Positions 10,044-33,923 of a stretch of 64,000 nucleotides of DNA are shown here, in pieces. The translations under genes were made by a program, and so were the position numbers. Where the stretch lies: NCBI GenBank assembly GCA_022822365.1, contig JAJEBV010000008.1, forward strand, positions 169,524-233,523, written 5' to 3'. Source of the DNA: Thermoanaerobaculia bacterium (lineage in GTDB: Bacteria > Acidobacteriota > Thermoanaerobaculia > Multivoradales > Multivoraceae). Under the pieces are notes generated by a model. It was not told the DNA's origin, did no database searches, and saw only the letters and a list, made by a program, of their open reading frames with translations. Position 1 is the first letter of the stretch. Each line of letters begins with the position of its first letter.

Positions 10044-12233
10044 GTGAGCCCTCCGCATCCCAGCACGGAGCCACGGTCGACGAGAAGCGCCGGGCGCGTC
10101 GCGGTCCTCCTGCCCTGCCTCAACGAGGAGGCGACGATCGGCAGCGTCGTGGGGCAGTTTCAGACGGCCCTGCCCGAAGCCTCCATCTACGTCTGCGATA
10201 ACGGTTCGGAGGACGGCACCGCCGAAGCCGCCCGCAGGGCCGGCGCCGAGGTCATCGTCGAGGAAGGGCGCGGCAAGGGCCGGGCCGTGCGCCGCCTGTT
10301 CCAGGAAGTCGACGCCGATGTCTACCTGATCGCCGACGGCGACGGCACCTACCACGCCGCCAGCGCCGAGCGTCTCGTTTCCACGCTGGCCGGCCGCTAC
10401 CTGGACATGGTCGTCGCGGTTCGCCGGAGCACGGAGCCCGGCGCCTACACGCCGATCCGCCGCCTCGGCAACCGCCTCTTCAGCCTGCTCGCCCGGTGGC
10501 GCTGCCACCGAGCCGTCCGGGACCTGCTCTCCGGTTACCGCGCTTTCTCCCGCCGGTATGTCGACGCCTTCCCGGCCCGCTCCGACGGCTTCGAGGTCGA
10601 GACCGAGATGACCCTGTTCGCCGCGTCGGCGGGAATGGCCTGGGACGAGATCGAGTGCCCCTACTTCGCGCGCCCGCCAGGGTCGCGAAGCAAACTGCAC
10701 GCCTTCCGGGACGGTCTCCGGATCCTCCAGACGCTCCTCTGGGCGCCCGCTGCGGCCGCGGGTGAGCAGCGCCTCGGCGCCTTGCGGGCCGCCGTCCTGG
10801 TGGCCGCGGTAACGGCCGTCGCCACGGCCTCCTTCCTCGGCCTCAACTGGCTCGCGGCGACCGCCGATCCGGAGCCCGTTGCCGACGCTCTCCGGGCCTC
10901 GTACGAGCACCCGGAACGCACTCTCGAGGACTCCGCCGAGCGCTTCAACGACTGCCTGCTGAGCCTGATGGCGCTCGACCGCGGCGGCACGCTCGTCGAA
11001 CGTACCGTCTCGCCCCGGCGCGTCTACCGCTACACCCGGCCCCAGCGCCCCTGCGACGCCCTCGAGCAGCGGCTGAGCCAGGGGGCGGTCGACGACTCCG
11101 ACTACCTGACCGTCTTCTACCACCAGTACTGGGCCGGCCAGCGGGTGATGCTGCAGGGGCTGCTGCCGCCGCTCGGCGTCGACGGCCTGAGGCGAACGCT
11201 GCGGGTGCTGACGTTCGGCCTGCTCGGGCTCGGGTTCTTCGGCGCGCTGGGACGCATCGTCCTTCTCTTCATCGGCCGCGAGCCCGAAAGCAAGGCGGCC
11301 GGAGGCCGGCCGGAAGGCCGGCGCACCGACAGGGCGGCGCCGCGCCAGAGCGCCGGCAACTCGAGGCGCTGGCGCGAGCACTTCTTCCAGGCGACTGCCC
11401 TCGCCGCCCTCTTCCTCAGCCTGTTCCTGTTCCTCGACCTGGACCGTCGCGCGGGGAGCTTCACCACCGGCGCCTCCAACGTCCTGACTCTCGCCCTGCT
11501 CGTGGCGGTGCCGGCGTTCGGGATCGCCAACTGGAAACCGGGACGCCAGGTCCTCCTCTTCGCCGGTTTCGGCGCCGCGATCGCCTACCACGAACTCCTC
11601 TTCGGCAGCGCCCTGATCGGCCTGGTCTGCGTGCTCCTCGCCCTCTCCACGGCGCCGCCCCCCGTCCACGCCACGGTCGCGGTCGCCCGGCACTGGTGGC
11701 CCGCCCTCTACCTGCGCTGCGGCGGCGCCTACGTCGGTTGCCTCTCCGCCGTCTTCCTGCTCCGCGTCGTCATCGCCGAGTTCGTGTTCAGGGAACCGGT
11801 GCTGTTCAAGTTCTGGGATCAGCTCACGCACCGGCTCTACGGAGCGCCCCGCAGTTCGATCCATCCCGATATCGACGTCTTCTACGCCTCCCGGCCGACC
11901 TTGGAGAGGTTCCTCGAACGGCTCGGAAACAACCTGGGCACCGTCGGCTTCGGCTCGACCGCGGTCGCCCTCATCCTGATCGGCGGCGCGGCACTGATCC
12001 TGATCGCCGCGACCGTCTTCGTCCTGAAGCAACGGCCTTCCCTGGAAGAACCCTGGCGCTGGCTCGGCGTTCTCGCCGCCGGCTGGTGCGTTCCCGCGTG
12101 GTACGTCGTCTTCTCTGCTCACTCGATGGCGCACGTACCGGTGGCGATCCGCCTGCTGGCGCTGCCCTACGCGGCGGCGGCGGTGCTCATCGTGGGCGTT
12201 GCGGTGTTCGGCCGGCGGACCGAGGTTGTTTGA
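10044..12233 (+). CDS. family-2 glycosyltransferase fused to a large polytopic membrane domain
   Basis: The N-terminus (VAVLLPCLNEE...YVCDNGSEDGT...IADGDGTY) is a GT-A/GT2 fold with a DXD motif. The C-terminal ~450 aa has many hydrophobic helices. Confidence 0.75.
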   Translation: MSPPHPSTEPRSTRSAGRVAVLLPCLNEEATIGSVVGQFQTALPEASIYVCDNGSEDGTAEAARRAGAEVIVEEGRGKGRAVRRLFQEVDADVYLIADGDGTYHAASAERLVSTLAGRYLDMVVAVRRSTEPGAYTPIRRLGNRLFSLLARWRCHRAVRDLLSGYRAFSRRYVDAFPARSDGFEVETEMTLFAASAGMAWDEIECPYFARPPGSRSKLHAFRDGLRILQTLLWAPAAAAGEQRLGALRAAVLVAAVTAVATASFLGLNWLAATADPEPVADALRASYEHPERTLEDSAERFNDCLLSLMALDRGGTLVERTVSPRRVYRYTRPQRPCDALEQRLSQGAVDDSDYLTVFYHQYWAGQRVMLQGLLPPLGVDGLRRTLRVLTFGLLGLGFFGALGRIVLLFIGREPESKAAGGRPEGRRTDRAAPRQSAGNSRRWREHFFQATALAALFLSLFLFLDLDRRAGSFTTGASNVLTLALLVAVPAFGIANWKPGRQVLLFAGFGAAIAYHELLFGSALIGLVCVLLALSTAPPPVHATVAVARHWWPALYLRCGGAYVGCLSAVFLLRVVIAEFVFREPVLFKFWDQLTHRLYGAPRSSIHPDIDVFYASRPTLERFLERLGNNLGTVGFGSTAVALILIGGAALILIAATVFVLKQRPSLEEPWRWLGVLAAGWCVPAWYVVFSAHSMAHVPVAIRLLALPYAAAAVLIVGVAVFGRRTEVV

Positions 12234-12350
12234 AATCTCGGAGCTACTCATCATGAGATTGCGGACTGGAGATTCAGAAATCTCGGAGCTAGTGATCTTG
12301 AAATCTCGGAGTACACTAACCGGAAATCTCGGAGTACAACTGAGACTTCG
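12231..12350. repeat. AT-rich cluster of four direct 12-mer repeats GAAATCTCGGAG, with degenerate and inverted partial copies, upstream of the ATPase gene
   Basis: Exact copies at 12232, 12277, 12300 and 12323 (spacings 45, 23, 23). Partial inverted copies occur (gagatt at about 12255 and 12270). Local GC about 45% against a ~70% background. The 11-mer CTTGAAATCTC (12297-12307) recurs inverted at 33913-33923. Confidence 0.7.
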
Positions 12351-12365
12351 GTTAGAGTCGTCGAG

Positions 12366-13520
12366 ATGATCGACCGGGCCGAGTACCTCAGGCGAATGGC
12401 AACCGCCACGAAGCGATCGCCGGTCACGTCCCTGCTCGGACCGCGCCAGTGCGGCAAGACCACCCTGGCCCGTGAGTTCGCTTCGACCCGCGCGGCAACC
12501 CTGTTCGACCTGGGATCGGAGGCGGACGTCCGCCGGCTCAGCAACCCCGAGCTGGTCCTGGGCGAGCTCGAAGGACTCGTCGTCCTGGACGAGATCCAGA
12601 TCATGCCCCGCCTCTTCCGCGTCCTCCGCGTCCTTGCCGACCGGCCGGACTCCCACACGCGTTTCCTGATCCTCGGCAGTGCGTCCCCGGAAATCGTGGG
12701 CGGCGCCGCGGAGTCGCTGGCCGGCCGGGTCGAGTTCATCGACATGACCGGCTTCGACCTGGCCGAGACCGGCGCAGCCGATCTGCGGAAACTCTGGCGG
12801 CGCGGCGGCTTTCCCCGCTCCTACCTTGCCTCTTCCGAAGCCGACAGCTCGCGTTGGCGCAGCGGGTTCCTCCGGACCTTCCTGCGAAGGGATCTCCCGC
12901 AACTCGGTATCGCGATTCCTCCCACAGCAATGCGGCGCTTCTGGACCACCCTGGCGCACTACCACGGCCAGATCTGGAACGCGGCCAAACTCGGCCGATC
13001 GATCGGCGTCTCGGACAAGACGGCTCGCCACTACCTCGACCTGCTGACCGGCGCCTTCATGGTCCGCCAACTCCAGCCCTGGTTCGAGAACACGGCCAAG
13101 CGCCAGGTCAAAGCGCCCAAGACCTACATCCGCGACACCGGCCTCCTGCATTCGCTACTCGGCATCGGCAAGGACCAAGAACTCCTGGGTCACGCCCGCG
13201 TCGGCGCGTCCTGGGAGGGCTTCGCCATCGAGCAGGTCTTGAGCGCCCTCGGCCAACCCGACGCCTGGTTCTGGGCCACCCACGGCGGCGGCGAAGTCGA
13301 CCTGATGGTCCTTGCGCGCGGCCTCCGCATCGGCTTCGAGATGAAGTTCAGCGAAGCGCCCAAGGTCACCACGTCGATACGCAACGCAGCCGAAACGCTG
13401 GCGCTCGACCACCTCTTCGTCGTCTGCCCCACGCGGCACACCTATCCGGTGACCGAGAAGATCACTGTGCTGTCGGCAGGCGACATTCCCGGCTTGCGCG
13501 ACCGGATCGAGGCTCTCTAA
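12366..13520 (+). CDS. AAA-superfamily ATPase, DUF4143/COG1373 family
   Basis: 384 aa. Walker A GPRQCGKTT, Walker B VVLDEIQ. The C-terminal region is typical of the 'ATPase (AAA+ superfamily)' DUF4143 proteins. Confidence 0.8.
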   Translation: MIDRAEYLRRMATATKRSPVTSLLGPRQCGKTTLAREFASTRAATLFDLGSEADVRRLSNPELVLGELEGLVVLDEIQIMPRLFRVLRVLADRPDSHTRFLILGSASPEIVGGAAESLAGRVEFIDMTGFDLAETGAADLRKLWRRGGFPRSYLASSEADSSRWRSGFLRTFLRRDLPQLGIAIPPTAMRRFWTTLAHYHGQIWNAAKLGRSIGVSDKTARHYLDLLTGAFMVRQLQPWFENTAKRQVKAPKTYIRDTGLLHSLLGIGKDQELLGHARVGASWEGFAIEQVLSALGQPDAWFWATHGGGEVDLMVLARGLRIGFEMKFSEAPKVTTSIRNAAETLALDHLFVVCPTRHTYPVTEKITVLSAGDIPGLRDRIEAL

Positions 13521-13596: not shown

Positions 13597-13881
13597 ATGA
13601 CTCGACCAATCGAAGTCAAACCCCGCAACGGATTCAAGCTCTGGCTCCGCTTCTCGGACGGTGCCGAAGGCGTCGTTGACCTCTCCCGCCTTGCCGGCAG
13701 GGGCGTCTTCCGATACTGGGCCAACGCGGACGCCTTTGACACAGTTCGGGTGGCCGAGCACGGCGCCGTCGTGTGGGGCGATGACGTGGAGCTATGCCCC
13801 GACGCGTTGTACCTCAAGGTCACCGGCAAGGCCGTTGACGAAGTGATGCCCGGGGCCGCTCAGCTCCTGTGCAATGCATGA
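13597..13881 (+). CDS. DUF2442-family small protein
   Basis: 94 aa. The pattern IEVKPRNGFKLWLRFSDGAEGVVDLS matches the DUF2442 N-terminal signature. Confidence 0.55.
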   Translation: MTRPIEVKPRNGFKLWLRFSDGAEGVVDLSRLAGRGVFRYWANADAFDTVRVAEHGAVVWGDDVELCPDALYLKVTGKAVDEVMPGAAQLLCNA

Positions 13882-13945: not shown

Positions 13946-16900
13946 ATGCAGCCGTCAGCACCGCCGTCCATCCCCCGGGTGGGCATGCTCGCCCGGGTCC
14001 GCAACCGCCGCGGCATCGTCGCTTCCGTCGAGCCATTCGACAACCCACACGGCGCTGACGCCGGCCGGCTGCATCTGGTCCAGGTCGAGTACAAGGACCA
14101 CGACTCTCCGCACAGCGAGCGTCTCCTCTGGGAACTCGAACCGGGGCGCAAGCTGCTCCCACCAAGCCAGCTGCCGCGGGTCCACGACACCTCGCCGATG
14201 CCGGCCGAGGACTTCGACGCCCTGGTCCGCGCCGCACGCTGGACAGCCCTCATGCCGTACCTCGATCCCGACGGCGCCGGCCCGCTCGACCGCCAGCCGG
14301 TGTCGAGCCCGCTGCACAGCGGCATCCGGGTAGAGGACTACCAGCTCGTCCCCCTGCTGCGCGCGCTGCAGATGCCGCGAGTGAACCTCCTCATCGCCGA
14401 CGATGTCGGACTCGGCAAGACCGTCGAAGCCGGGCTCATCCTCAAGGAGCTCCTGCTGCGCCGACGCATCCGCCGAGTGCTCGTCCTGGCGCCCGCGGCA
14501 CTGCGCATGCAGTGGCGCGAGGAGCTCGACACCAAGTTCGCCCTGCCGTTCGAGGTCGTCGACCGCGACCGGACCGAGCGCTTGCGCCGCGAACTCGGCA
14601 TCGACGCAAACCCCTGGCGCTCGTTCAGCCGCATCGTCGCCTCCTACCACTACCTGCGCCAGCCGGACATCCAGGAGCAGTTCCTGGCCGCCAGCCAGAC
14701 GCACGACGGGTCGCCCCGGCTTGCCTGGGACCTCCTGATCGTCGACGAATGCCACAACCTGATGCCCTCGCCCTTCGGCGACGACAGCGAGCTGTGCCAG
14801 ATGCTGCGGCGGATCGCACCCTGCTTCGAACACCGGCTGTTCCTCTCCGCCACGCCGCACAACGGCCACACCCGGTCGTTCACCGGTCTGCTGGAGATCC
14901 TCGACCCGGTGCGCGTCAGCCAGACCGACGAACTGACCAACCGCGCCCGGGCCCGCGTCGGCCAGTTGGTGGTCCGCCGCCTGAAACGCGAGCTGAACCA
15001 GGAGTCCGCCGCGCCCCGGTTCTGCACTCGCAACCCACCGGAACCTCTCCTTCTCCACCGGAGCCGGCGCGAACAAACCCTGTCCGAGGCCTTCCACGCC
15101 TTCCGCACGGCCGTCCGCGGCGCCATCGCGGCCGGCCAGGCCCGCGAACGGGCGGGGACCTTCGCGATCGAGATCCTGGGCAAGCGCCTCCTGTCCTGCC
15201 CGACCGCCTTCGCCGACTCCTGGTACCGCGCGCGCGACGGCTACGCCCGAGCCGAACGGGCCGCAAGAGCCGCGACCGACGCCGACGTGACGGCGGCGCA
15301 ACGCTCAGTCGAGCGCGAAACCTCGGACGACCGGGAGACCGAAGAGCGCACGGGAACCGCTGCCGGCGTCGTCGGCGCCTGGCTGCTCAACGTGGCGGAC
15401 TCGGTCGCCGCCGAGATGACGGCCATCGACAACGTCCTCGAAGCCCTCGGCTTCACGCCGGACGGTCCGCCGGCCATCGAGCAGACTCCCAGGGTCGACG
15501 CCCGCTTCGACGCCCTGTCGGACCTGATCGACCGGCTCCTGCTTCTCCCGGCCGCCACTGACTCGACGCCTGCCTTCCACGACGACGAACGCCTCGTCGT
15601 CTTCACCGAGTACAAGACGACCCTCGACTACCTCGAACGGCGCCTGCGAGAGCGCTACGACTCCCGCGTGCTGACTCTCTTCGGGTCCGGCGGCGCCGGC
15701 GGCATGGACGACACCGACCGCAACCGGGTCCGGGAGGCCTTCAACGACCAGGACTCCGAGGTGCGCATCCTGATCGCTACCGACGCCGCCTCCGAAGGCC
15801 TGAACCTGCACCGCAGCGCGCGCTACCTGTTGCACTACGACTGCCCCTGGAACCCCTCTCGCTTGGAGCAACGCAACGGCCGGCTCGACCGCTACGGCCA
15901 GGCTCGCGACGTGACGGTGCATCACTTCCTGAGCAACGACGACCCGGACCTCCGGTTCCTCGACCACGTGATCAAGAAGGCCGACGAGATCCGCGAAGAC
16001 CTGGGATCGGTGAACGAACTCTTCGATGTCGCCGCTCACCGCCGGCTGATCGAGGGCGAGGACCTGCGAAGGGTCCAGTTCGACCTGAACCACGGACTCG
16101 AACATGAAGTCGAACGGCTACGAAGCCAGGGAATCCCAGGCCTGACCGCTTTTTCCTCGCAGGAGCAACTCGGCGAGGCGGAACTGCTCCGCGTTCGCGG
16201 CGGCCGGGCACTGGCCGACGAGGATCCGGCCAAGCGCCTGGCCGCGCTGGCCACCGAGATCGACTTCGATGCCGCCGCGCTCCGGCTCACGCTCGAAGCT
16301 GCCATGGCCGCCACCGGCGGAGGCCGGCCGCAACTTCGCCACGCTCCGGCCGAAGACGACTTCTGGCGTCTCCTCCGCCCGGATCTCCCGGGCTGGCGCG
16401 ACACGATCGACGAGTCGGTACGGCAGCCGACCAAAGACGGTGTTCACGGCGGGACCCGGTCACTCGCCTTCGACCCCGACTCCCTGCTACGCCGGGTGGG
16501 CGGCCGCGGCGTGTTCTCCCCACGGCAAGAGGTCGCGCTGCTCCACCTGGCGCATCCGATGATCGAGCGCACGCTGCGCGTGCTCACGCAACACCGCCTG
16601 CCGGGCCCAAACGAAAAGGCGCGTTGGACAGTGCGGCGCGGCGGCGTACCCCACGGCGTCGACGCCCTGATCCTGCTCAGCCTGGAGGAACTCGCCGTCA
16701 ACGAACTCCGCGAGACCTTCCACCACTGGGTGCGGACAATCGCCTTTCCCGTTCAGGGAGGCGTTCTAGGCGAACGCGAGCGCCACGTCCCCGCCCGCAA
16801 CCTGGCCGCTTCCGCGCGTGCGGCCCGCACAGACGCCGGCAACGGATCACTTCCCGGCGACTTGTCCGCACCGACGCAAGCCGAGGAGGACCTTGCAAGA

Positions 16901-17347
16901 ACGATCTTCCTCGATGTCGAAGCCGACCTGGAAGCCGTCGTGACCCGCCACGCCGAAGGCCTGACCGAGTCGCTGCGCGAGCAGTTGCAAGTCGACGGCC
17001 AGGAAGCCCTGAAACGCGAAGACGAGCGCTACCGCAGCCGCCAGGGCGAAGTCTCCGAACTGATCGAGCAAACCCGCATCCAACGGCTGGAACGAGAGAT
17101 CGAGAAACTCCGCCGCGAGCAGCAGCAACGCCTCCTCTTCGATCAACGCCGCGACCTGGAGCGCATCGCCGGCTCCATCCAGGAGAAGCAACGCGAGATC
17201 GAGCATCGCCGGCGCCACTACGAAGACGCACGCGAGCAACTGGAACTCGAGCGCCGGCGGATCGTCGACCGACTCCTGCCGAGGCGCCACGCGCTCGCCG
17301 GGAAGGCGCAGGCCTTCCCCGTCGCCGTCGAGGTGCGGCTACCTTGA
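13946..17347 (+). CDS. SNF2-family helicase (DISARM DrmD-like)
   Basis: 1133 aa. SNF2 N-domain motifs (LIADDVGLGKT, DLLIVDECHNL, LFLSATPHNG) and a helicase C-domain (LIATDAASEGLNL, CPWNPSRLEQRNGRLDRYGQ). Coiled-coil C-terminus. Immediately upstream of an N6-adenine MTase. Confidence 0.8.
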   Translation: MQPSAPPSIPRVGMLARVRNRRGIVASVEPFDNPHGADAGRLHLVQVEYKDHDSPHSERLLWELEPGRKLLPPSQLPRVHDTSPMPAEDFDALVRAARWTALMPYLDPDGAGPLDRQPVSSPLHSGIRVEDYQLVPLLRALQMPRVNLLIADDVGLGKTVEAGLILKELLLRRRIRRVLVLAPAALRMQWREELDTKFALPFEVVDRDRTERLRRELGIDANPWRSFSRIVASYHYLRQPDIQEQFLAASQTHDGSPRLAWDLLIVDECHNLMPSPFGDDSELCQMLRRIAPCFEHRLFLSATPHNGHTRSFTGLLEILDPVRVSQTDELTNRARARVGQLVVRRLKRELNQESAAPRFCTRNPPEPLLLHRSRREQTLSEAFHAFRTAVRGAIAAGQARERAGTFAIEILGKRLLSCPTAFADSWYRARDGYARAERAARAATDADVTAAQRSVERETSDDRETEERTGTAAGVVGAWLLNVADSVAAEMTAIDNVLEALGFTPDGPPAIEQTPRVDARFDALSDLIDRLLLLPAATDSTPAFHDDERLVVFTEYKTTLDYLERRLRERYDSRVLTLFGSGGAGGMDDTDRNRVREAFNDQDSEVRILIATDAASEGLNLHRSARYLLHYDCPWNPSRLEQRNGRLDRYGQARDVTVHHFLSNDDPDLRFLDHVIKKADEIREDLGSVNELFDVAAHRRLIEGEDLRRVQFDLNHGLEHEVERLRSQGIPGLTAFSSQEQLGEAELLRVRGGRALADEDPAKRLAALATEIDFDAAALRLTLEAAMAATGGGRPQLRHAPAEDDFWRLLRPDLPGWRDTIDESVRQPTKDGVHGGTRSLAFDPDSLLRRVGGRGVFSPRQEVALLHLAHPMIERTLRVLTQHRLPGPNEKARWTVRRGGVPHGVDALILLSLEELAVNELRETFHHWVRTIAFPVQGGVLGERERHVPARNLAASARAARTDAGNGSLPGDLSAPTQAEEDLARTIFLDVEADLEAVVTRHAEGLTESLREQLQVDGQEALKREDERYRSRQGEVSELIEQTRIQRLEREIEKLRREQQQRLLFDQRRDLERIAGSIQEKQREIEHRRRHYEDAREQLELERRRIVDRLLPRRHALAGKAQAFPVAVEVRLP

Positions 17348-20300
17348 GCCTCCAGGGCTGGAACGATCTGCGCCACGGCGGCCTGCTGCTCGACGCGCAA
17401 CGCCAAAGCGAAATCGCCGCCTCCACCCGTGCCCGCGTCCTCGATCCGTGGCTGGAGAGCGAGGCCCGCCGGCGGGCCGACCTGCTCCGCGACCCTGGCG
17501 CCGCCAACGCCGGCGAACGCACCGAGTTCGTCAGCTTCGTGCTGGAGAGCCTGTGCGGCTTCGAACCGGACGACCTGGGCAGCCGCTGGCTGCGCGGCAG
17601 CCGCATCCCAGCGGAATGGAGCCGTCGCGCCCTGACCGGCGAAAGCGTCCGCCCAAACCACCTATGGCTGGGGCCGAAGGGAGCCGTCCTCCCCGTCTTC
17701 GTCACCGGCGACAGGCAGGTCGGCATCGGCCGCGGCCGGCGCGAAACGAGCCGCGCCCTCGGTTGGCTGCGCGCCGGCAACGAACGGCTCGCCCTGCTCA
17801 CCAACGGCCGCCAGTGGCGGCTTCTCTTCGCCGGCCTCGACTTCGACGCCTGGTGCCAGTGGGACGCCGACCTCTGGTTCGCCGAGGGGGCTCCCACGCC
17901 GGCCCTGAACGCGCTGCTCACGCTGATCCAACCGGAGCTCTGGACACCCGAGGAAGAAGGCGCCGACCCGCCCCTGCTGCGCGCGGTCCGCGACAGCCGC
18001 AAGGGCCAGTCCGAACTCTCCGAGGCACTCGGCGAACGTGTGCGCGAGGCGGTCGAACGCCTGATCCAGGGCCACGGCGAAGCCCTGAAGCAAGAGTGCG
18101 CGACCGTGGACAAGGCCGACATCTACCGCGCCGCCTGCCGCGTCGTCATGCGCCTGGTGGTCATCCTCTTCGCCGAAGCGCGGGGACTGCTGCCGCGGAA
18201 CGACGCCGTCTACCACGACAGCTACGGCCTGGGCGGCCTGCACGAATCGCTGCGGCGCCGGGCGGCGGCCGGACGCTCGCAAACCCAGAGCTACGGGGCC
18301 TGGCCGCGGCTGCTGGCGCTGTTCAAGCTGGTCCGCAAGGGCTCACACCACCCCGACCTTGCCGTTCCCGCCTACGGCGGCGACCTGTTCGCACCCGGAT
18401 CGCCTACAGCCGACGACCGCCTTTCGCGCGCTCTGGCCGTCTTCGAGACCGCGTGTCTCGACGGCGAACTCCTCTCCGACGCCGAAGTCCACGAGATGCT
18501 GGAGCGTCTCACCCGGACCCGCATCCGCATCCGCCAGGGCAAGACCAGCCGCCTCGTAGCGGCGTCCGTCGACTTCTCCGATCTCTCGACCGAGTACATC
18601 GGCGTCCTCTACGAGGGTCTGCTCGACTACGAACTCAAGACGGCGCCGAGCGACGACTCGATCATCTTCCTTGCCGTCGGCGAGCAGCCGGCGCTGCCCC
18701 TGTCACGACTGGAAGAAATGGACGACAAGGCCCTCCGCAGCCTCTTCGCCGCGATGAAGAAGGCGTCCAGCCCCGACGCCGACGAGGATTCAGCGCCCAC
18801 CGACTCCGCATCCGACGACGCTCCCCCACTGGGTGCGCCGGCGCCCCCGCCGGCATCGGGCGCGACGCCGCGAAGCGGCGAGCCCGAACCCACCGAAGAC
18901 CCCCGCCAGACCATCCGCACCCACGCCGAAGCCTGGGCCCGCCACGCCGCCCTCACTGCCGGCCTCGTGAAGAAACCACCGAAGTCCCAAGCAACCCTCC
19001 TCTCCTCCCACGAAGACGAACTCCGCAAACGCGCCGCCCAACTCGTCAACCGCGTCGTCCTGCCCAACGAGTGGTACCTCGTGCGCTGGGGCGGCACCCG
19101 CAAGGGCTCCGGCAGCTTCTACACACGGCCCGGCCTCACCGTGCCCACCGTGCAACGCACTCTTCGCCCGCTGGCCTACGACCCGCCGCTCGATGACGAC
19201 GGCAAACCCGACCGCGATGCCCCACCCGCGGACTGGACTCCTAGGCGTCCCGAGGACATCCTGAGCCTGAAGGTCTGCGACCCGGCCTGCGGCTCCGGCA
19301 GCTTCCCGCTGGCCGCACTCCGCTTCCTCACCGACGCGCTCTACGCCTCCGTCCGGCACCACCGCCGCATCGAAGACCGGGACGACCGCTCCCTCGTCCG
19401 CCTGCTCGGCCTGGACGACTCCGGGGAGACCGAGGCCGATGCCGTCGAGCGACCGGGCGACGAACTCATCCCCTGCCCACCCGACGCCGACGACTTCGAG
19501 CCGCGGCTGCGCGCCGTTCTGCGGCGCTACGTAGTCGAACGCTGCATCTACGGTGTCGACGTCGACCCGCTGGCCGTTTCCCTCTGCCAGCTCTCCCTGT
19601 GGATCGAGACGATGGACCGGGACCTCCCCTTCTCCTTCCTCGACCACAAGATCCGCTGCGGCAACTCGCTCATCGGCGCCTGGTTCGACCAGTTCCAGCA
19701 CTACCCCGCGATGGCCTGGAAGAACCGCGAAGCCGGCGACAAGAACCATTCCAACGGCGTCCACTACGAGAAGGGCGCCCAGACCAAGGCGATAAAGGAG
19801 TGGGTCAAGAACGAACTGACCCCCGACCTGCGGCACACCCTGGAGGGCCGCACCCTCTTCCACGAAGACCTGCTCGAACAGGCGGCCGCCGCCCACGGCG
19901 CCGCCCTCGAAGGCCTGGAACGCATGCACCGGCTCCCCATCCGGGACTCCGCCGCCCGTGCCCGCCTCTACCGCGAGGAACTGACCGGTTCCGACGAGTG
20001 GCGCTCGCTCAAGAACGCGATGGACCTCTGGTGCGCCTGCTGGTTCTGGCCCGCCGACGAACTGGACCGCGCTCCCCTGCCCACCACGTTCACCGACCCC
20101 GGGCCCGAGACGCGCGCCGTAGCCGAACGCATCGCAGCCGCGATGCGCTTCTTCCACTGGGAACTGGAGTTCCCGGATGTGTTCCGGGAAGAGGGAGCGG
20201 GCTTCGACGCGATGCTGGGCAACCCACCATGGGACATCGCCAAACCGAAGTCGCAGGAGTTCTTCTCCAGCATCGATCCGCTCTACCGCTCCTACGGCAA

Positions 20301-22683
20301 GCAGGAAGCCCTGCGCCGGCAGAACGGCTACTTCGACGAGGACCAGGAGATCGAGCGCGACTGGCTCGCCTACAACGCCCGCTTCCGCGCCCAATCGAAC
20401 TTCGCAGCTCGTGCGGCCTCTCCCTTCGGCGATCCCGCGGAGAACGACCAGAGCGAACGGCGCTTTTACCTTGGCAAGGGCAATCTCAGTCTGCACGACA
20501 GTTGGCGCGAGACACGAGGTCGCTCACGCTGCTACGCCGACACCGACCACTCTTTCAGACACCAGGGGTCGGCTGACCTGAACCTGTACAAGCTGTTCCT
20601 AGAGCAGGCTCATGCGCTGCTCGCCATCGGAGGGCGGCTCGGCTTCCTCGTCCCGTCGGGCCTGTACTCCGACAAGGGCACCGGCCCTCTGCGGGACCTG
20701 TTCCTAGAACGGTGCCGATGGGAGTGGCTCTTCGGCTTCGAGAACCGAGCCAAGCTGTTCCCTATCGACAGCAGGTTCAAGTTCAACTCGGTGATCGTCC
20801 AGAAAGACAGCCAGACCCACGTCATCCGTACCGTCTTCATGCGCCGCGACCTGACCGATTGGGAAGAGGCCGAGGAGTTCGCCGTCCCCTACAGCCTCGA
20901 TCAGGTCAACCGATTCAGCCCGAAGAGCCGCGCGATCTTGGAGATCGAGTCACAACGTGACCTCGAAGTCCTCGAGAAGATCTACGCCAACTCGGTACTC
21001 CTCGGCGACGGCGGCCCCAACGGCTGGGGCATCGGCTACGCCACCGAGTTTCATATGACGAACGATTCGAAGCTCTTCCCGCCCCGCCCCCGGTGGGAAG
21101 CGAAGGGTTACCGCCCCGACGAGTACAGCCGCTGGCTCCTCGGCAACTGGCATCCGATCGACGAACTGTGGTCCGAACTCGGCGTCGGTCCCGATAATCC
21201 CGAGCCCGCTGCGATCGAAGTCGAAGACTGGCTGTACGAGCCCGACGCCAGCCCGGAGCGCCGCCAAGCTGAGCGCAGCTTCATCCATGGCCATTTCCTC
21301 GCACCCGGCGATGTCGAAGCCACCGGGTGGGAACTGCGGTGCGCCCAACCGCCCTACGACCGCCTGCCCGTGCCAAGAGTCGCCATTCCCGAGGGCATCG
21401 TCCTGTCGAGAGAAACCGACGCATGGATCCACGAGACCGAGATCGAGGACACGGCCCTTCCGCTGTACGAAGGCCGGATGATCGGCCAGTTCGACTTCAG
21501 CGAGAAGGGCTGGGTCAGCGGTAAGGGAAGAAGTGCCGTCTGGCGCGAGATTCCGTGGGAGCAGAAGCAGATCGAACCCCAGTACCTGATGGCGCAGAGC
21601 GCGTACGTCTCATCCGGGAAGTCGGTTTTGCGACCAAAGATCGCCTACATGCGAGTCAGTTCCTCGACAAACTCCAGGTCCACGATCGCTACGTATCTCG
21701 GCAGCCACCCCGCCGGGGACAGCGTCTTCTACTTCGTGCCCTGTGACGATGACCCGGAGGTTGCCACAGTCATCGCCTCTATCTTCTCGACGCTGGCGTT
21801 CGACTTCGTCATTCGCGCACGCCTCAGCGGCTTGAACATGAGCGAGTTCGTCATGGTGGACGCGGCCCTTCCGCCACGTCTCGGAAGCCTCACGCAAGCC
21901 ATGCTAGGGCCCGCCATAGCCCTTTGCCTCACCGGCCCCTCGTCAGCCGTGGAGCGCCTCCGCCTAGCGGCAGCCGACGGGTCTTCCCGTGCTTCCCGGC
22001 TCAAATCGCTGGCGGCCCTCACGCCGGCCGCACGGCTCGAGAGGATCTCGGCACTAGACGCGATAGTCGCAGCTTCCTTTGGCCTACGAACAGGCGACCT
22101 GAACTACGTGCTCAGGGGCTGCGACGAGATAGAGCCGGAGGGTCTGGCGCCGAAGGGCTTCTGGCGAGTCGACAAGGACAAACCGCCGGAACTCCGCCAC
22201 ACGGTCCTGGCCCAGATCGCCTTCACCGACCTTCAGCGCCACATCGAGTCCGCCGCCGGCGACCGCGAAGCCGGAATTCTGGCTTTCATGTCACAGAACC
22301 AGGGCGAAGGCTGGCACCTCCCCGAGACCCTCCGCCTCGCCGACTACAACCTCGGCCACGACGACCGCGCCCAAGAGCACCAGCGGGTAGCCACCGAACT
22401 CGGTCCTCGCTTCTACGATTGGCAGCTCGCCCAGACGCCTGAAGAAGCCTGGGCCGAAACCCACCTCCACGCCCGCAACCTCTTGGGCGAACACGCCTAC
22501 CGCAGACTTCGAGCCGAAATCGAGCAAAGGCCTCCAGAGCACACTCCCGCCACCACCGCCCCGACCTTCTCCGAGATCGCCGAAGAGCGCCACCGTTGGG
22601 ACTACTGGGTCAACCGGACGGCAGAGCCCACCTCGAAGCCCTCGAAATCAGTAAACACGGACCAGACTGACCTCTTCGACTGA
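17344..22683 (+). CDS. large N6-adenine DNA methyltransferase (PglX/DrmMI-like, gamma-class)
   Basis: TTG start overlapping the drmD-like stop (cTTGA). About 1779 aa. SAM motif I LKVCDPACGSGSFPLAAL (about 19272-19305) and catalytic motif IV GNPPWD (about 20221-20232). The track ORF 16624.. is extended upstream by read-through of the previous gene in another frame. Contains an in-frame copy of a ~65-nt repeat at 18825-18888. Confidence 0.8.
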   Translation: MSLQGWNDLRHGGLLLDAQRQSEIAASTRARVLDPWLESEARRRADLLRDPGAANAGERTEFVSFVLESLCGFEPDDLGSRWLRGSRIPAEWSRRALTGESVRPNHLWLGPKGAVLPVFVTGDRQVGIGRGRRETSRALGWLRAGNERLALLTNGRQWRLLFAGLDFDAWCQWDADLWFAEGAPTPALNALLTLIQPELWTPEEEGADPPLLRAVRDSRKGQSELSEALGERVREAVERLIQGHGEALKQECATVDKADIYRAACRVVMRLVVILFAEARGLLPRNDAVYHDSYGLGGLHESLRRRAAAGRSQTQSYGAWPRLLALFKLVRKGSHHPDLAVPAYGGDLFAPGSPTADDRLSRALAVFETACLDGELLSDAEVHEMLERLTRTRIRIRQGKTSRLVAASVDFSDLSTEYIGVLYEGLLDYELKTAPSDDSIIFLAVGEQPALPLSRLEEMDDKALRSLFAAMKKASSPDADEDSAPTDSASDDAPPLGAPAPPPASGATPRSGEPEPTEDPRQTIRTHAEAWARHAALTAGLVKKPPKSQATLLSSHEDELRKRAAQLVNRVVLPNEWYLVRWGGTRKGSGSFYTRPGLTVPTVQRTLRPLAYDPPLDDDGKPDRDAPPADWTPRRPEDILSLKVCDPACGSGSFPLAALRFLTDALYASVRHHRRIEDRDDRSLVRLLGLDDSGETEADAVERPGDELIPCPPDADDFEPRLRAVLRRYVVERCIYGVDVDPLAVSLCQLSLWIETMDRDLPFSFLDHKIRCGNSLIGAWFDQFQHYPAMAWKNREAGDKNHSNGVHYEKGAQTKAIKEWVKNELTPDLRHTLEGRTLFHEDLLEQAAAAHGAALEGLERMHRLPIRDSAARARLYREELTGSDEWRSLKNAMDLWCACWFWPADELDRAPLPTTFTDPGPETRAVAERIAAAMRFFHWELEFPDVFREEGAGFDAMLGNPPWDIAKPKSQEFFSSIDPLYRSYGKQEALRRQNGYFDEDQEIERDWLAYNARFRAQSNFAARAASPFGDPAENDQSERRFYLGKGNLSLHDSWRETRGRSRCYADTDHSFRHQGSADLNLYKLFLEQAHALLAIGGRLGFLVPSGLYSDKGTGPLRDLFLERCRWEWLFGFENRAKLFPIDSRFKFNSVIVQKDSQTHVIRTVFMRRDLTDWEEAEEFAVPYSLDQVNRFSPKSRAILEIESQRDLEVLEKIYANSVLLGDGGPNGWGIGYATEFHMTNDSKLFPPRPRWEAKGYRPDEYSRWLLGNWHPIDELWSELGVGPDNPEPAAIEVEDWLYEPDASPERRQAERSFIHGHFLAPGDVEATGWELRCAQPPYDRLPVPRVAIPEGIVLSRETDAWIHETEIEDTALPLYEGRMIGQFDFSEKGWVSGKGRSAVWREIPWEQKQIEPQYLMAQSAYVSSGKSVLRPKIAYMRVSSSTNSRSTIATYLGSHPAGDSVFYFVPCDDDPEVATVIASIFSTLAFDFVIRARLSGLNMSEFVMVDAALPPRLGSLTQAMLGPAIALCLTGPSSAVERLRLAAADGSSRASRLKSLAALTPAARLERISALDAIVAASFGLRTGDLNYVLRGCDEIEPEGLAPKGFWRVDKDKPPELRHTVLAQIAFTDLQRHIESAAGDREAGILAFMSQNQGEGWHLPETLRLADYNLGHDDRAQEHQRVATELGPRFYDWQLAQTPEEAWAETHLHARNLLGEHAYRRLRAEIEQRPPEHTPATTAPTFSEIAEERHRWDYWVNRTAEPTSKPSKSVNTDQTDLFD

Positions 22684-22799: not shown

Positions 22800-23846
22800 A
22801 TGGCCGGACTCCCGCGAATCGTCAAGGACCAGCTAGAGCAGGCGAAAGGCGCGTGCCTCGCCGCCGTCGAGACCTACAACAGGCCCGGCGTGGCCTTTCG
22901 GACACGGACATTCACCGTTCTCATGGCGATTGCGTGGACGTCGCTGTTCCATGCGATCTTCTACCGTCGCGCCCGAAAGCCCTGGTACGTGCGAAGCGGC
23001 GCCGGCCGCGGCATCCGGTATGAGAAGGTAGACGGGGAACCGAAGCACTGGGAGCTGAGCGAATGCACGCGCCAGTTCTATGGCGGCCACAACCCTCCAC
23101 AACGCAAGAACCTCGAGTTCATGGTGCTTCTCCGGAACAAGATCGAGCACCGCCACCACCCCGAACTCGATCTCGCGCTGTACGGTGAATGCCAAGCGTG
23201 GCTGATGAATTTCGAGGAACTTCTCGTAGCCGAGTTTGGGGCCGCCCAAGCACTCGCCGGACATCTTGATCTCGCCCTGCAGTTCTCGGCCTTTCGGCCC
23301 GAAGGACAGCAAGAGGCGATCCGGCGCCTGAACTCATCCGCAGCCAAAGACCTCCTAAGCTTCATTCAGAGCTACCGCGCCGGTCTCCCGGCAGATGTTC
23401 TAGAGAGTTCCTCGTACTCCGTCAGAGTCTTCCTGCTCCCCAAGCTCGCCGTCCGGGACAACGCAGCCGACCTCGCCGTGGAGTTCGTGCCGTACGACCC
23501 CACGAACCCCGAAGAGATGAAGCGGTTGAAGCGAGTCACAGCGATGATCAAGGAGAAGCTGACACCCGTTGCAAGTGCCGGCCTCATGAGACCGTCAGAA
23601 GTCGTCGCTCGCATTCAGGAACACCTACCCGACTTCTCCATCCACACGCACACGCAAGCCTGGAGGACCTACAACGTCCGGCCGCCGACCGGTGCCAACA
23701 GCCCAGCTTCGACTCGGCCCGAGTTCTGCATCTACGACGAGTTAGCTCAAGGTTATGGCTACACGGAAGCTTGGGTGAAGTTCCTCCTCCGGAAACTCAG
23801 TGACACGGCTGAGTTCGACCGAGTGATGAGCTGGAAGCCCAGCTAG
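22800..23846 (+). CDS. hypothetical protein (defence-island accessory; no motif recognised)
   Basis: 348 aa ORF with an ATG start and a protein-like, non-Arg-biased composition. Positioned immediately after the MTase. Confidence 0.5.
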   Translation: MAGLPRIVKDQLEQAKGACLAAVETYNRPGVAFRTRTFTVLMAIAWTSLFHAIFYRRARKPWYVRSGAGRGIRYEKVDGEPKHWELSECTRQFYGGHNPPQRKNLEFMVLLRNKIEHRHHPELDLALYGECQAWLMNFEELLVAEFGAAQALAGHLDLALQFSAFRPEGQQEAIRRLNSSAAKDLLSFIQSYRAGLPADVLESSSYSVRVFLLPKLAVRDNAADLAVEFVPYDPTNPEEMKRLKRVTAMIKEKLTPVASAGLMRPSEVVARIQEHLPDFSIHTHTQAWRTYNVRPPTGANSPASTRPEFCIYDELAQGYGYTEAWVKFLLRKLSDTAEFDRVMSWKPS

Positions 23847-23972: not shown

Positions 23973-24830
23973 TCAAGGTCTCGGCATTCGCCACCCGAAC
24001 AGCTCTCGCCACGTCTCAACCGCCGCCCTCAGCTTGCCCTCGTACTCGAGCTGCAGCGCCTCTTCACTGATCGCCAACCACCCGCGCGCGATGTCGGCGA
24101 GTTCTCTGCGACGTCCTTGTCCTATCCCAGCGTTCACACTTGGGCCTAAGCCCACCGGATCGGGCCAGTCGTCTGTTATCCGGTCCGCGATCGAAGCCAT
24201 GTAGAACCGGATCTCATGGCGGTACTCGCCAAACGGCTCCGTCACAAGGTCCAGGGCCATGACCTCGAGGAGAAACGCGGGCTCGATGGGGTCTCCTGCC
24301 TCGCGGTTGATTCCCTTCACCATCTTCACGAAGGGCACGAACTTCTCGTCGCACTCCTTATTCTTCGCGGTCACGAGCGCGTGCTGCTCCCGCGGATCCG
24401 TGGCCATCCACGCCGACCCGCTAGGCATCCAGTAGCCTCCTCCGCGTCGCGGGAACACCGGAGCGACCTCGTAAGACGCAACGTCTTCCTCGCCATAGTT
24501 GATCGTGACGACGTTGTCGTCGGCGGCCAGGTCCGGCCACCGCGTCGCCAGCAGGTCGCGCAACGCGAGCACCGCCGCCGTGCCCGTACCTTCGGCCAAG
24601 TCCGCCTGCGGTCCCTCCGGGTCAACGACGACAAAGATGTCCACGTCCTTCAACCTCTTCGTTTTCGTGTGCCGCCTGTAGCTGCCGGTCAGGAAGTCGT
24701 CCACTAGTTGCCACGATGCCCCGATGTGGTCACGCACCAACTCGTGCCGGGTTTGGGCCTGTCGACTCTCGGTCCTGGTGATCTCAAGATTCGACTTCAG
24801 GTTGTCGAAAGCGTCATCGACGTAGCTCAT
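23973..24830 (-). CDS. cGAS/DncV-like nucleotidyltransferase (CD-NTase, SMODS domain)
   Basis: An ATG at 24830 gives MSYVDD (the track starts at GTG 24839). Pol-beta NTase motif GSYRRHTKTKRLKDVDIFVVV (GS...DxD) and a third acidic residue in SYEVAPVF. Last gene of a four-gene coupled operon with a Trip13-like ATPase. Confidence 0.7.
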   Translation of the reverse strand: MSYVDDAFDNLKSNLEITRTESRQAQTRHELVRDHIGASWQLVDDFLTGSYRRHTKTKRLKDVDIFVVVDPEGPQADLAEGTGTAAVLALRDLLATRWPDLAADDNVVTINYGEEDVASYEVAPVFPRRGGGYWMPSGSAWMATDPREQHALVTAKNKECDEKFVPFVKMVKGINREAGDPIEPAFLLEVMALDLVTEPFGEYRHEIRFYMASIADRITDDWPDPVGLGPSVNAGIGQGRRRELADIARGWLAISEEALQLEYEGKLRAAVETWRELFGWRMPRP

Positions 24831-24839
24831 TCTCTTCAC

Positions 24840-25838: not shown

Positions 25839-26759
25839 TCAGCCCTCCGAACCTCCCTGACTGATACCGCCGTCCTCCATGACCCGCGAGGCCGCCGCGA
25901 GCAGGTCGTCGATCGTCGTACTTCCCGGGTCGAGCACCGTCTCGTCCCGGCCGAGCATCGCCTCCAGAATCGTCTTCCGGACCCGCCGGCCGTCCGCTCC
26001 CGCCAAGCGTCCCGCGACCTCTTCGAGCTGCTCGTCGCAAGCAAGTTCGCCGAGACACGCGTAAGCCGGCGCCATCGACCGAAGAGCGGACCTCAGGATC
26101 GCGACGATTCCCGCAGAATCCGGCACCGGGACGTGAATTTGCACGTCCACCCGCGACAAGAAGGCCTCGTCCAGGACGCCGACGAAGTTGCTCGTTGCCA
26201 CGAAGACCAGATTGGGGAACGCCGTCGTATTCGCGTCGAGCGCCGCCAACACGGCGTCCGTCGCTCGGTGCACGTCTGCCGGATTCGCCGCCAGCGACGC
26301 CTCGCTCCTCGCGACGGCCATCGACTCGATCTCGTCAAGGAGAACGACCGTAGGCACACCGTCGTCGGCAAGGCTCGGCACGTACTCCGCGAGCAACTGC
26401 GTTACAGCGCTCTGGCTCTCCCCATGCTCGGCGCTCATGAGACCGTGGGGATTGACCTCGACCAGCCGCGCTTGACGCTTCGGGGTGATCTTCGCCAGTT
26501 CATGGGCCAGACCACGTGCCAATGTCGTCTTACCTGTTCCCGGGGGGCCGTGTAGCAGGACGAGCCCATGCAGCGCCGTCGTCTCGAAGGGCAGTTCGCG
26601 ACGTAGGCGGAGATTCAACGCCGTGGCTCGGAGCAGACGGTCCTTCACCGAAGCATCAACTACAATCGAGTCCCACAGGCCCGCGTAGGCTGGATCCGGC
26701 ATCTCGCGAACAGCGCGCACGGACTCGGCCGCTTGACTGGGTGCGTTTTCGCTTCGCAT
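25839..26759 (-). CDS. Trip13/Pch2-like AAA+ ATPase
   Basis: ATG at 26759 (MRSENAPS...). Matches Trip13 blocks: LWDSIVVDASVKDRLL, LLHGPPGTGKTTLARGLA, EVNPHGLMSAEHGESQSAV, VLLDEIESMAVAR, NLVFVATSNFVGVLDEAFLSRVD. Confidence 0.85.
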   Translation of the reverse strand: MRSENAPSQAAESVRAVREMPDPAYAGLWDSIVVDASVKDRLLRATALNLRLRRELPFETTALHGLVLLHGPPGTGKTTLARGLAHELAKITPKRQARLVEVNPHGLMSAEHGESQSAVTQLLAEYVPSLADDGVPTVVLLDEIESMAVARSEASLAANPADVHRATDAVLAALDANTTAFPNLVFVATSNFVGVLDEAFLSRVDVQIHVPVPDSAGIVAILRSALRSMAPAYACLGELACDEQLEEVAGRLAGADGRRVRKTILEAMLGRDETVLDPGSTTIDDLLAAASRVMEDGGISQGGSEG

Positions 26760-26831
26760 GACTGCAACTCTACTTCGCAACAGGCGCGACCGCAACCCTC
26801 GAATCCGGCGACTCGAACATTCCCGTGCGGC

Positions 26832-27263
26832 ATGACCATGGTCGATCCCGGTTCCCCTAAGCCAACCGCGGCCCGGCCCTCGGCGAGACCCGCTCCCAAC
26901 CGCCGACGAGATCGCCCTCAGGTGGGCAGCGTTCTCCGCCGAGCCCGCCTGCACCACGACCTCTCGCTACGCGAGGTGGAACGCCGCATCGGCCGGTCCA
27001 ACGCGTATTTGTCCCAGGTGGAGCGCGGCCTGATCAAGCAGCCCGACCCGATCGTTCTCCTGGAACTGGCCGAACTCTACGGCCTGAACTTCGAGACCCT
27101 CGCGGCCTGGGCGAACTGGGTTTCCGCCGACCCGAACCCTTCGGGCGCGCAACCGCGTGACTCAACCGCCGTTCTCGTCCGGCAGGTCATGGAACTCGAC
27201 GCCGCCGAAAGGGCGACGGTTCTCCGCTTCGTCGACTCCATCCTGCGCAAGCGGCGGACGTAG
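26832..27263 (+). CDS. XRE-family helix-turn-helix transcriptional regulator
   Basis: ATG at 26832 (MTMVDPGS...). HTH LSLREVERRIGRSNAYLSQVERG. Divergent from the Trip13-like operon with a 72-bp intergenic region. Confidence 0.7.
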   Translation: MTMVDPGSPKPTAARPSARPAPNRRRDRPQVGSVLRRARLHHDLSLREVERRIGRSNAYLSQVERGLIKQPDPIVLLELAELYGLNFETLAAWANWVSADPNPSGAQPRDSTAVLVRQVMELDAAERATVLRFVDSILRKRRT

Positions 27264-27400: not shown

Positions 27401-28246
27401 TCAACCTCGCTCTGCGGCCTCGTACACCGGCTTCCTCAACTTGAAGAACCACTCCGGCACCATCGGGCTAAGCCGCCGATGTTCGAAGAGGCGGGCCTGC
27501 ACGAGCCGGACGTCGCAAAGTGTCTGACTACCAGACTGCGCCCCAGCCCGTGACAGGAAGCGATGCAGCTTCTCCATGCGGATCCTTGCCGCAGATTGAG
27601 CAGTAACCGCCAATACCACCCACGCGACAAGCCTGAGACACGCCGCCACCAAGAGAACCACGTCCAGCAGTGAAGCCTCTGCAAGCACCGCCCCCAGAAG
27701 GACCGTCACCACCGACGCACCTACCAACGACTTGACGACCCAGATCCACTCCCTGCGTAATCGCTCCTCCCAGCGACAGCTAGCCCTCTGGCAGTGCAAC
27801 TGCGCCGCCACCGGCTCCGCGGGAATGGCTTCCGCTCGATACCAGTCAACCAGATCCTCCGGCGAGTCCCTTCGCGCGCTCCCTTTTCTCGCCAGCTCCT
27901 TCACTCTGTCATCCGTGGGCTGCTCCACACCGCTGTGAGCCGACCAAGGTAGGTCAAGGACGAAACAGTCAAACGCCTCCTGGATCGTCGCAGCTTCCTC
28001 CTTCATCCGGTCCCCCCACCGAGCCAGAAGCGGCTGGTCCACGAACCAAAGCAAGACAACGATGACGGTCGCTGCGTGACTGTCCGACCCCGCCTCCCTG
28101 GTCAAGCCCCAGAGCGCTACAACCGCAACGGCCACCACGCCCCCGAGCCGCACGCCCTCTACCTTCTTGACCTGCCGGTACAGCCAACGCAGCGCCGCCA
28201 GCCTTTCCAGTGACCGCTGGCTGTTCTGCCGCTCCCGAATGCTCAC
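27401..28246 (-). CDS. predicted multi-pass membrane protein (candidate effector)
   Basis: 281 aa, GTG start. Hydrophobic helices (GVVAVAVVALWGL, ATVIVVLLWFV, LVGASVVTVLLGAVLAEASLLDVVLLVAACLRLVAWVVLAV). No enzymatic motif recognised. Confidence 0.5.
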   Translation of the reverse strand: MSIRERQNSQRSLERLAALRWLYRQVKKVEGVRLGGVVAVAVVALWGLTREAGSDSHAATVIVVLLWFVDQPLLARWGDRMKEEAATIQEAFDCFVLDLPWSAHSGVEQPTDDRVKELARKGSARRDSPEDLVDWYRAEAIPAEPVAAQLHCQRASCRWEERLRREWIWVVKSLVGASVVTVLLGAVLAEASLLDVVLLVAACLRLVAWVVLAVTAQSAARIRMEKLHRFLSRAGAQSGSQTLCDVRLVQARLFEHRRLSPMVPEWFFKLRKPVYEAAERG

Positions 28247-33888: not shown

Positions 33889-33923
33889 CTTGAAAATCCA
33901 GCAGTCACCGCCGAGATTTCAAG
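33889..33923. promoter_or_regulatory. inverted repeat CTTGAAAATCC-N13-GAGATTTCAAG upstream of the giant helicase gene
   Basis: The half-site matches the 11-mer CTTGAAATCTC found in the 12.2-kb direct-repeat cluster. Located about 80 bp upstream of the 34004 start. Confidence 0.55.

Follow-up and report, generated by a model that had tools for sequence, protein, structure and literature searches.

In this study, we examine an array of short direct repeats in a stretch of 64,000 nucleotides (nt) of DNA, hereafter the window, from a Thermoanaerobaculia bacterium (GenBank assembly GCA_022822365.1, contig JAJEBV010000008.1, positions 169,524 to 233,523 of the forward strand). The array fills the 132-nt gap (12234-12365) between a GT2 glycosyltransferase gene and a gene for an AAA_14+DUF4143 ATPase-nuclease, the PADLOC candidate defence gene PDC-S01, and the repeats are probably binding sites through which this gene is autoregulated. 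The features of the array, of the promoter region and of the ATPase gene are the following, with distances counted from the ATPase start codon.

12232-12243, + strand: repeat 1, GAAATCTCGGAG, the distal site, at -134; its first bases are the GA of the GT2 stop codon TGA (12231-12233)
12255-12266, + strand: degenerate direct copy, GAGATTGCGGAC, matching at 8 of 12 positions, filling in the 22-23 nt phase from repeat 1 to repeat 2
12277-12288, + strand: repeat 2, at -89
12300-12311, + strand: repeat 3, at -66
12323-12334, + strand: repeat 4, the proximal site, at -43 to -32, spanning the expected position of the -35 hexamer and homologous to the left arm of the inverted repeat found family-wide
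12338-12349, - strand: degenerate right-arm remnant of the ancestral palindrome in the -35/-10 spacer, AACTGAGACTTC against CTCCGAGATTTC (8 of 12), compared by eye with the related locus L010
12353-12358, + strand: -10-like hexamer TAGAGT, 7 nt before the ATG, with no Shine-Dalgarno sequence; the transcript is probably leaderless
12366-13520, + strand: AAA_14+DUF4143 ATPase-nuclease gene, 384 amino acids, PDC-S01 (Pfam and PADLOC)
12921-13133, + strand: predicted winged-helix domain, residues 186-256 (secondary structure of the model, a weak HTH_11 match and covariation)
13014-13052, + strand: predicted recognition helix H3, residues 217-229, beginning with D217-K218 (secondary structure of the model)

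An exact search returned exactly four exact copies of the 12-mer GAAATCTCGGAG in the 64 kb, all on the + strand, at 12232, 12277, 12300 and 12323 (spacings of 45, 23 and 23 nt), just as a first-pass annotation of this DNA had reported, and the low-GC (guanine plus cytosine) block that it had described between the GT2 stop codon and the ATPase start is equally real, with 45.8% GC for 12231-12350 (46-47% for the block) against 67.8% for the window. Six sites with at most one mismatch to the 12-mer are present in the window, compared with 0.36 ± 0.56 in 100 dinucleotide-preserving shuffles of it, none of which reached six, and Tandem Repeats Finder reports a 23-nt period over 12230-12311. Because the degenerate copy at 12255 occupies the 45-nt gap, the array can be read as five phased units; the matching position in L081, whose ATPase is 99% identical, reads GAGATTTCGGAG, with two mismatches. 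The inverted partial copies that had also been claimed are weak overall, and only the one at 12338-12349 is meaningful, lying where relatives carry the right arm of a palindrome. Neither of the observations that would have spoken against the first-pass annotation was made: within the window the motif is rare outside the array, and homologous genes are preceded by it. At the extreme 3' end of the GT2 gene (12207-12224), just before repeat 1, there is a weak terminator-like hairpin with GTTGTTTGAA after it.

In all, 164 related loci were collected (designated here by L and a number). The direct-repeat set comprises ten arrays with 49 sites: the window, L081-L084 and L001-L005. All nine close relatives of the window ATPase (75-99% amino acid identity; Acidobacteriota of the Thermoanaerobaculia, including Ca. 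Multivorans, and of the Holophagales) carry four to seven head-to-tail copies each directly upstream of the ATPase start, including six perfect copies in L082 (protein 93% identical), and the variants found among them are GAAATC[T/C]CGGAG and GATATCTCGGAG. All 49 sites agree at motif positions 4, 5 and 8-11, and 40 of them have T at position 13, whereas spacer positions 14-22 appear random. Neighbouring repeats are spaced by 22 nt (23 cases), by 23 nt (12 cases) or by multiples of these, so that 35 of the 39 intervals measure 22-23 nt. In most of these arrays the proximal site is found at -43 to -45, the values for L002 and L084 hinging on the start-codon call. Moreover, array length differs among relatives with 93-99% identical proteins (222 nt in L081, 3126-3347; 155 nt in L082, 2536-2690; 132 nt in the window), and this, together with the differing copy number, indicates rapid gain and loss of units. 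The combination of exact cores, free spacers and shifting copy number points to selection acting on the cores and not to simple slippage. The suggestion of the first-pass annotation that a regulator binds cooperatively across phased repeats fits these data well, given that the motif is kept upstream of homologous ATPases while the spacers drift, and that the proximal site lies over the -35 region.

The junction between the GT2 stop codon and the first repeat seen in the window also occurs in L081, L082, L083, L002 and both copies in L001; it is kept in six syntenic relatives, and the content downstream of the ATPase varies. In L003-L005 the array and the ATPase gene stand together in an unrelated genomic context, where the DNA becomes homologous to the window at about repeat 1 and the homology, followed at the protein level, stops at the stop codon. 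These limits of homology indicate that the moving unit consists of the array plus the ATPase gene, and the motif accompanies this gene rather than the island. Pfam scans of the open reading frames (ORFs) flanking the L003 cassette gave no matches, and those ORFs may be spurious in high-GC DNA.

A different arrangement of the same half-site prevails in the rest of the family. The distant set consists of 154 loci; a metagenome scan doubled the palindrome data set and yielded no close relatives, only proteins of 52-65% identity, adding nothing on the direct-repeat clade. By strict criteria, at least 111 of the 154 distant loci carry the half-site as a single inverted repeat of 15+15 bp, and in about 15 others the palindrome stands at a different offset; these palindromic relatives (52-68% identity) belong to the Proteobacteria, Desulfobacterota, Planctomycetota, Verrucomicrobiota, Bacteroidales, Chloroflexota and others. 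The consensus, CCTTGAAAAT(y)CGGA-TTGACAT-TCCG(r)ATTTTCAAGG, has its centre 31-34 nt before the ATG. When 58 loci were aligned, 88.5% of the cells were paired, against at most 52% in controls slid by 1-3 columns, and two-sided changes were found in 14 of the 15 pairs: the family-wide palindrome is kept up by two-sided changes. The non-Watson-Crick cells (63 G.T, 37 A.C and 185 other) are not dominated by G.T, and the constraint seems to act at the DNA level rather than at the strand level.

The palindrome is embedded in a promoter. Its centre is the -35 hexamer, with TTGAC in 58 of the 111 loci, and its right arm fills the -35/-10 spacer, the distance from TTGAC to TANNNT being mostly 16-17 nt. 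TANNNT lies 3-10 nt before the start codon in 87 of these 111 relatives, with a mode of 6 nt, and at 6-7 nt in 60 of them; a -10 box so close to the ATG implies a leaderless mRNA. The palindromic form thus appears to be a dyad that encloses a sigma-70 promoter close to consensus, from which a leaderless mRNA would be made. The link to the window is provided by L010, whose palindrome carries the window half-site exactly (GAAATCTCGGAG-TTCAG-CTCCGAGATTTC-ATGT-TAGAAT) and to which the proximal region of the window aligns with a decayed right arm at 12338-12349, TAGAGT as the -10 box and 7 nt to the ATG. On Dinoroseobacter shibae plasmid pDSHI06 (NZ_CP097546.1; L169, 2440-2503) the palindrome CCTTGCAAATCTTCCAC-GAG-GTGGAATAAATGCAAGG ends just before the ATG; the Roseobacter homologue (46% identity) lies directly downstream of repC on RepABC plasmids, with the palindrome nearer the ATG. 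ATPase homologues were found in 143 plasmid records.

The window ATPase matches the Pfam families AAA_14 (4.5e-20) and DUF4143 (2e-40), the PADLOC model PDLC04790 (1.3e-77) and six further PDC-S01 models. DUF4143 has been placed in the PD-(D/E)XK nuclease superfamily (PMC3424549), and a 2026 survey, which detected tens of thousands of copies, placed PDC-S01 fourth in frequency among the defence candidates of prokaryotes; it is described there as abundant, and most candidates of the PDC series still await experimental validation (PMC12988326). Expression of the Thermus AAA_14/DUF4143 gene TT_P0211 was changed about 6.6-fold when plasmid DNA was present (PMC4406477). The conservation of the window ATPase is unusually strong, with at least 8000 proteins at E<=1e-30, the best 120 of them 66-99% identical. 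A look-up for an identical protein found none on record, and sequence searches of the PDB with the protein, with a full-length profile or with a profile of residues 178-272 gave nothing informative. The final structural model (m87073dcfca75), made from a 114-sequence alignment, has a predicted local distance difference test score (pLDDT) of 89.4 and a predicted template modelling score (pTM) of 0.90; it supersedes an AlphaFold2 model from 60 close homologues, which was unusable over residues 140-282 (pLDDT below 50). The predicted protein consists of an AAA+ core (residues 1-135), a helical lid, a winged helix and a C-terminal alpha/beta domain carrying D312, E325 and K327. The elements of the winged helix in the model are helices at 186-198, 206-213 and 217-229 and beta strands at 202-203, 233-238 and 252-255, and the best structural matches are the AAA+/winged-helix ATPases 2qen and 2fna, with Cdc6/Orc1 lower in the list.

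What reads the sites can be approached through linkage and covariation. A conserved neighbour gene was sought in the first 80 loci, drawn from many phyla, and the largest cluster covers only 4 loci; since no neighbour is common to more than these, the ATPase is the only protein constantly linked to the element. The predicted recognition helix of this protein varies together with the inner bases of the half-site: helix starts xDKT and xEKT go with ...GGA, SENT with ...TCA, SEHT with ...TGnA, and NEST and GEST with C/G-rich inner triplets. The window agrees with this correspondence, its helix beginning S-D-K-T and its half-site ending in CGGA. K218 is accompanied by inner GGA in 98 of 114 arms, compared with none of 108 arms for other residues, and N218 by TCA in 21 of 32. 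On a neighbour-joining tree built without residues 195-245, K218 is found in six separate clades, and GGA occurs in 56 of 57 K218 tips against 0 of 54 non-K tips. When mutual information was computed over all 384 residues, residue 218 came top for half-site positions 13 and 14, and residue 217 for position 11. Reading of the sites by the winged helix of the ATPase itself would be expected to leave such a pattern.

It therefore seems rather likely to us, judging from comparative evidence, that the 12-mers are half-sites of an autoregulatory operator and that they are read by the winged helix of the PDC-S01 ATPase itself. Two marks of such an operator are seen: the dyad or repeat sites overlap the core promoter, and they co-evolve with the putative DNA-reading residues. 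According to the mechanism we propose, the ATPase/PD-(D/E)XK nuclease would bind half-sites of its own promoter through the central winged helix. Across most of the family, two half-sites would form a palindrome around a consensus -35 box, filling the spacer of a strong leaderless-mRNA promoter, and a bound dimer would occlude RNA polymerase and so hold a potentially toxic ATPase-nuclease at a low, self-limited level; operator and gene together would be a self-contained, horizontally portable single-gene cassette usable in many hosts. The clade of the window would have rebuilt the palindrome as four to seven head-to-tail left half-sites 22-23 bp apart, or about two helical turns, where several protomers could bind cooperatively on roughly one face of the DNA, with the proximal copy on the -35 region. 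As to the sign of regulation, we infer negative autoregulation for the palindromic form, because its arms flank the -35 box and one of them fills the spacer, and repression is thus favoured there; activation is possible for the direct-repeat form, because winged-helix activators of the OmpR/PhoB type share its layout.

Several observations count against this interpretation. The clade of the window has lost the -35 consensus and the right arm, and 4 of its 5 sites lie upstream of the promoter, a layout more typical of activators, so that simple autorepression may not apply there. A generic sigma-70 promoter scan of 12000-12600 returned no promoter and one weak terminator-like site. The sole profile hint of a helix-turn-helix (HTH) is a weak HTH_11 match over residues 199-230 (E 0.2), and the nearest structural relatives after 2qen and 2fna are STAND NB-ARC and CED-4, whose winged helices are not DNA readers. 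Arrays without an adjacent ATPase gene occur in L001 and L167. The covariation may be confounded by phylogeny, a risk that is lessened by the six independent K218 clades, and the case for binding and regulation by the ATPase is comparative throughout.

It has to be considered whether the repeats serve, besides or instead of an operator, as a platform on which head-to-tail AAA+ protomers assemble and park, forming a chromosomal nucleoprotein complex that, in the service of defence, would hold the nuclease inactive or prime it as a sensor. The four to seven copies, six of them perfect in L082, come near the size of an AAA+ oligomer; their strict head-to-tail orientation and 22-23 nt phase would suit a spiral assembly; most sites lie upstream of the promoter, where simple occlusion would not need them; and the structural relatives include the DNA-bound AAA+ assemblies Orc1/Cdc6, MuB, TnsC and DnaA. 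However, at least 111 of 154 relatives carry a single dyad-symmetric site placed precisely over the core promoter, which is classical operator geometry, and we regard the platform, though compatible with the data, as unlikely. That the ATPase assembles on its own array specifically to park the nuclease until infection, or to drive rearrangement of the cassette or island, strikes us as distinctly unlikely; if it did so, the duplicated GT2 3' end plus array units described below and an orphan palindrome upstream of the DISARM helicase of the island would be its footprints.

The first-pass annotation had offered, as an alternative to a regulator, recombination or attachment-site repeats at the boundary of the island; the array would then mark where a mobile defence island or cassette begins on its left side. 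Part of this has a basis in the related loci. A unit of GT2 3' end plus array is present twice in L001 (4593-4953 and 8172-8573), where the ATPase has a fragment of about 190 nt of GT2 and array 1 upstream of it, and is itself upstream of a full GT2 gene with its own array 2. It is also present twice on the single contig that holds L083 (3580-3921) and L167 (12786-13126), where the two units are about 82% identical and flank the whole island of about 42 kb as direct repeats, the second unit lacking the ATPase. The onset of homology between unrelated contexts near repeat 1 and the varying array length among 93-99% identical relatives can be read in the same way. Nevertheless, ordinary duplication and deletion could also account for the duplicated units, and a scan of island ORFs from 12.3 to 40.7 kb, which left aside some small ones, detected no integrase, recombinase or transposase domain. 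Furthermore, the window holds a single array, which keeps a constant orientation and distance to the ATPase start codon, also in unrelated contexts, and not to a variable junction; the GT2/array junction is stable in the six syntenic relatives, and most of the family has its palindrome embedded in a promoter. Attachment sites as the main explanation are accordingly quite improbable.

That the sites belong to a different transcription factor, be it a host factor or the XRE-type HTH protein encoded in the island at 26832-27263, which the first-pass annotation had put forward as a candidate, is very unlikely in our judgement. The appeal of the idea is that such a protein lies in the same island, and that DNA binding by the winged helix of the ATPase is a prediction. 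The XRE protein, however, has no homologue in any of the array-bearing related loci compared, the neighbour search among the first 80 loci revealed no shared gene, and it is residues 217 and 218 of the ATPase that co-vary with the half-site; a host factor conserved from Bacteroidales to Acidobacteriota that shifted its specificity in step with residue 218 of another protein is implausible.

Extremely improbable is a nucleic-acid hairpin, whether of RNA or as a DNA cruciform, or a functionless by-product of replication slippage: the palindrome shows compensatory changes as a stem would, and a 23-nt tandem period is typical of slippage, but direct repeats cannot pair with one another and are exact while their spacers diverge (slippage would copy the spacers as well), the palindrome lies upstream of the likely transcription start, G.T is not favoured, and Rfam gave only sub-threshold chance matches in the window region and in five perfect-palindrome loci. 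Three further candidates were rejected, namely a plasmid iteron origin (the phase of about 22 bp is right, but the context is chromosomal and the flanking genes have no Rep domain), transposon ends of the Tn7/Mu type (one orientation only, no second inverted cluster and no transposase found) and an array of clustered regularly interspaced short palindromic repeats (CRISPR; the core is 12-13 nt with spacers of 10-11 nt, and there are no cas genes).

The ATPase gene stands in a defence island, with DrmD and DrmMI downstream and with PDC-S19, a cyclic-oligonucleotide-based antiphage signalling system (CBASS; SMODS, S_4TM) and a DrmA/B-like helicase within 28 kb. The remaining features of the island are these.

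13597-13881: DUF2442 gene, between the ATPase and DrmD
13946-22683: DrmD (SNF2 helicase) and DrmMI (methylase)
22800-23846: PDC-S19 (DUF3644)
23973-24839, 25839-26957 and 27401-28246: CBASS set, respectively SMODS, AAA and S_4TM
30507-32075: ThiF
32072-33340: AAA_21
33890-33922, no strand assigned: the sole canonical-type inverted repeat of the window, TTGAAAATCCAGC-AGTCACC-GCCGAGATTTCAA, ending about 80 nt upstream of the DrmA/B-like helicase gene
34004-40117: DrmA-DrmB-fusion-like helicase, 2037 amino acids, with DEAD/Helicase_C, an MrfA Zn-binding domain (MZB, DUF1998-type) and a C-terminal LexA-like S24 peptidase domain

The slot after the ATPase is variable: DUF2442 is present in the window, L082 and L083 (in the latter together with DUF4160) and absent in L002, L081 and L084. 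The system resembling DISARM (defence island system associated with restriction-modification) appears to be split, with DrmD/DrmMI about 11 kb from the DrmA/B-like helicase and other defence genes between them. The helicase architecture with the S24 domain is conserved among the homologues listed, which are at least 60% identical. As for the inverted copy of the motif that the first-pass annotation had noticed upstream of this helicase, it is real, although its coordinates were 2-3 nt off: the right arm of the 33890-33922 repeat is the cognate half-site CGCCGAGATTTC at 33909-33920, with one mismatch. The repeat is partly kept in L165, whose helicase is 92% identical, and is absent in L166-L168, and a tblastn search near 33.9 kb found no second ATPase copy or remnant. 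This palindrome could be the relic of a PDC-S01 promoter, or the ATPase may have a second target here.

A literature search on DUF4143, AAA_14, COG1373 and PDC-S01 yielded no description of an operator. As far as the literature examined shows, what is new here is the assignment of the element to PDC-S01, an AAA+ ATPase-nuclease as its putative reader, the residue-to-base correspondence and the switch of one clade from palindrome to direct repeats; protein-binding repeats that autoregulate a gene are an already known kind of element. If the ATPase does read its own operator, PDC-S01 gains a first testable molecular handle, consisting of a defined half-site, a predicted reading head with a simple correspondence (K218 with GGA, N218 with TCA) and a portable consensus promoter with a leaderless start, and with these three parts a single gene would be able to function after transfer between phyla. 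The change from palindrome to phased array within one clade would moreover be a natural experiment in the rewiring of one protein-site pair.

It is useful to set the element beside known systems. Orc1/Cdc6 and the archaeal Arch_ATPase proteins (2qby, 2qen and 2fna) differ in that the window ATPase adds a C-terminal PD-(D/E)XK domain, has no link to a replication origin and has its sites on its own promoter. The BrxR/CapW-type WYL-wHTH (winged HTH) regulators head defence systems and bind inverted repeats in their own promoters, and PDC-S01 resembles them in its position at the head of defence systems and in the inverted repeats of its promoter, to which it would bind; unlike them, it has no WYL domain and is not linked to any particular downstream system. 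Activators of the OmpR/PhoB type are winged-helix response regulators with a half-site phase of 10-11 bp. Their sites are arranged like the window array: phased and head-to-tail, they begin near -40 and continue upstream, and the proximal one takes the place of a poor -35 box. The phase here is 22-23 nt, however, and activation is the established sign only for the response regulators.

The iteron plasmids pSC101, F, R6K and pPS10 come close in architecture, for there a winged-helix Rep protein reads direct repeats of about 22-bp phase as well as an inverted repeat on its own promoter, where it acts as an autorepressor. Both systems use one half-site in two architectures, tandem with a phase of about 22 bp and inverted on the gene's own promoter, and both would have winged-helix readers, that of PDC-S01 being predicted; here, however, there is no replication origin, DnaA box or Rep protein, and the two architectures are found in separate lineages rather than in one replicon. 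Finally, the C proteins of restriction-modification systems, such as C.PvuII, C.AhdI and C.Esp1396I, are small dedicated regulators with an Xre-type HTH, which act on palindromic C-boxes in their own promoters. The putative reader here is in contrast an AAA+ ATPase-nuclease of 384 amino acids, and the clade of the window has four to seven direct repeats instead of two dyads. Yet the likeness between the two is considerable: in both a defence cassette carries its own palindromic operator, the transcripts of C-box systems are often leaderless, as that of PDC-S01 is likely to be, and the autoregulation of those systems is thought to manage expression after transfer to a new host.

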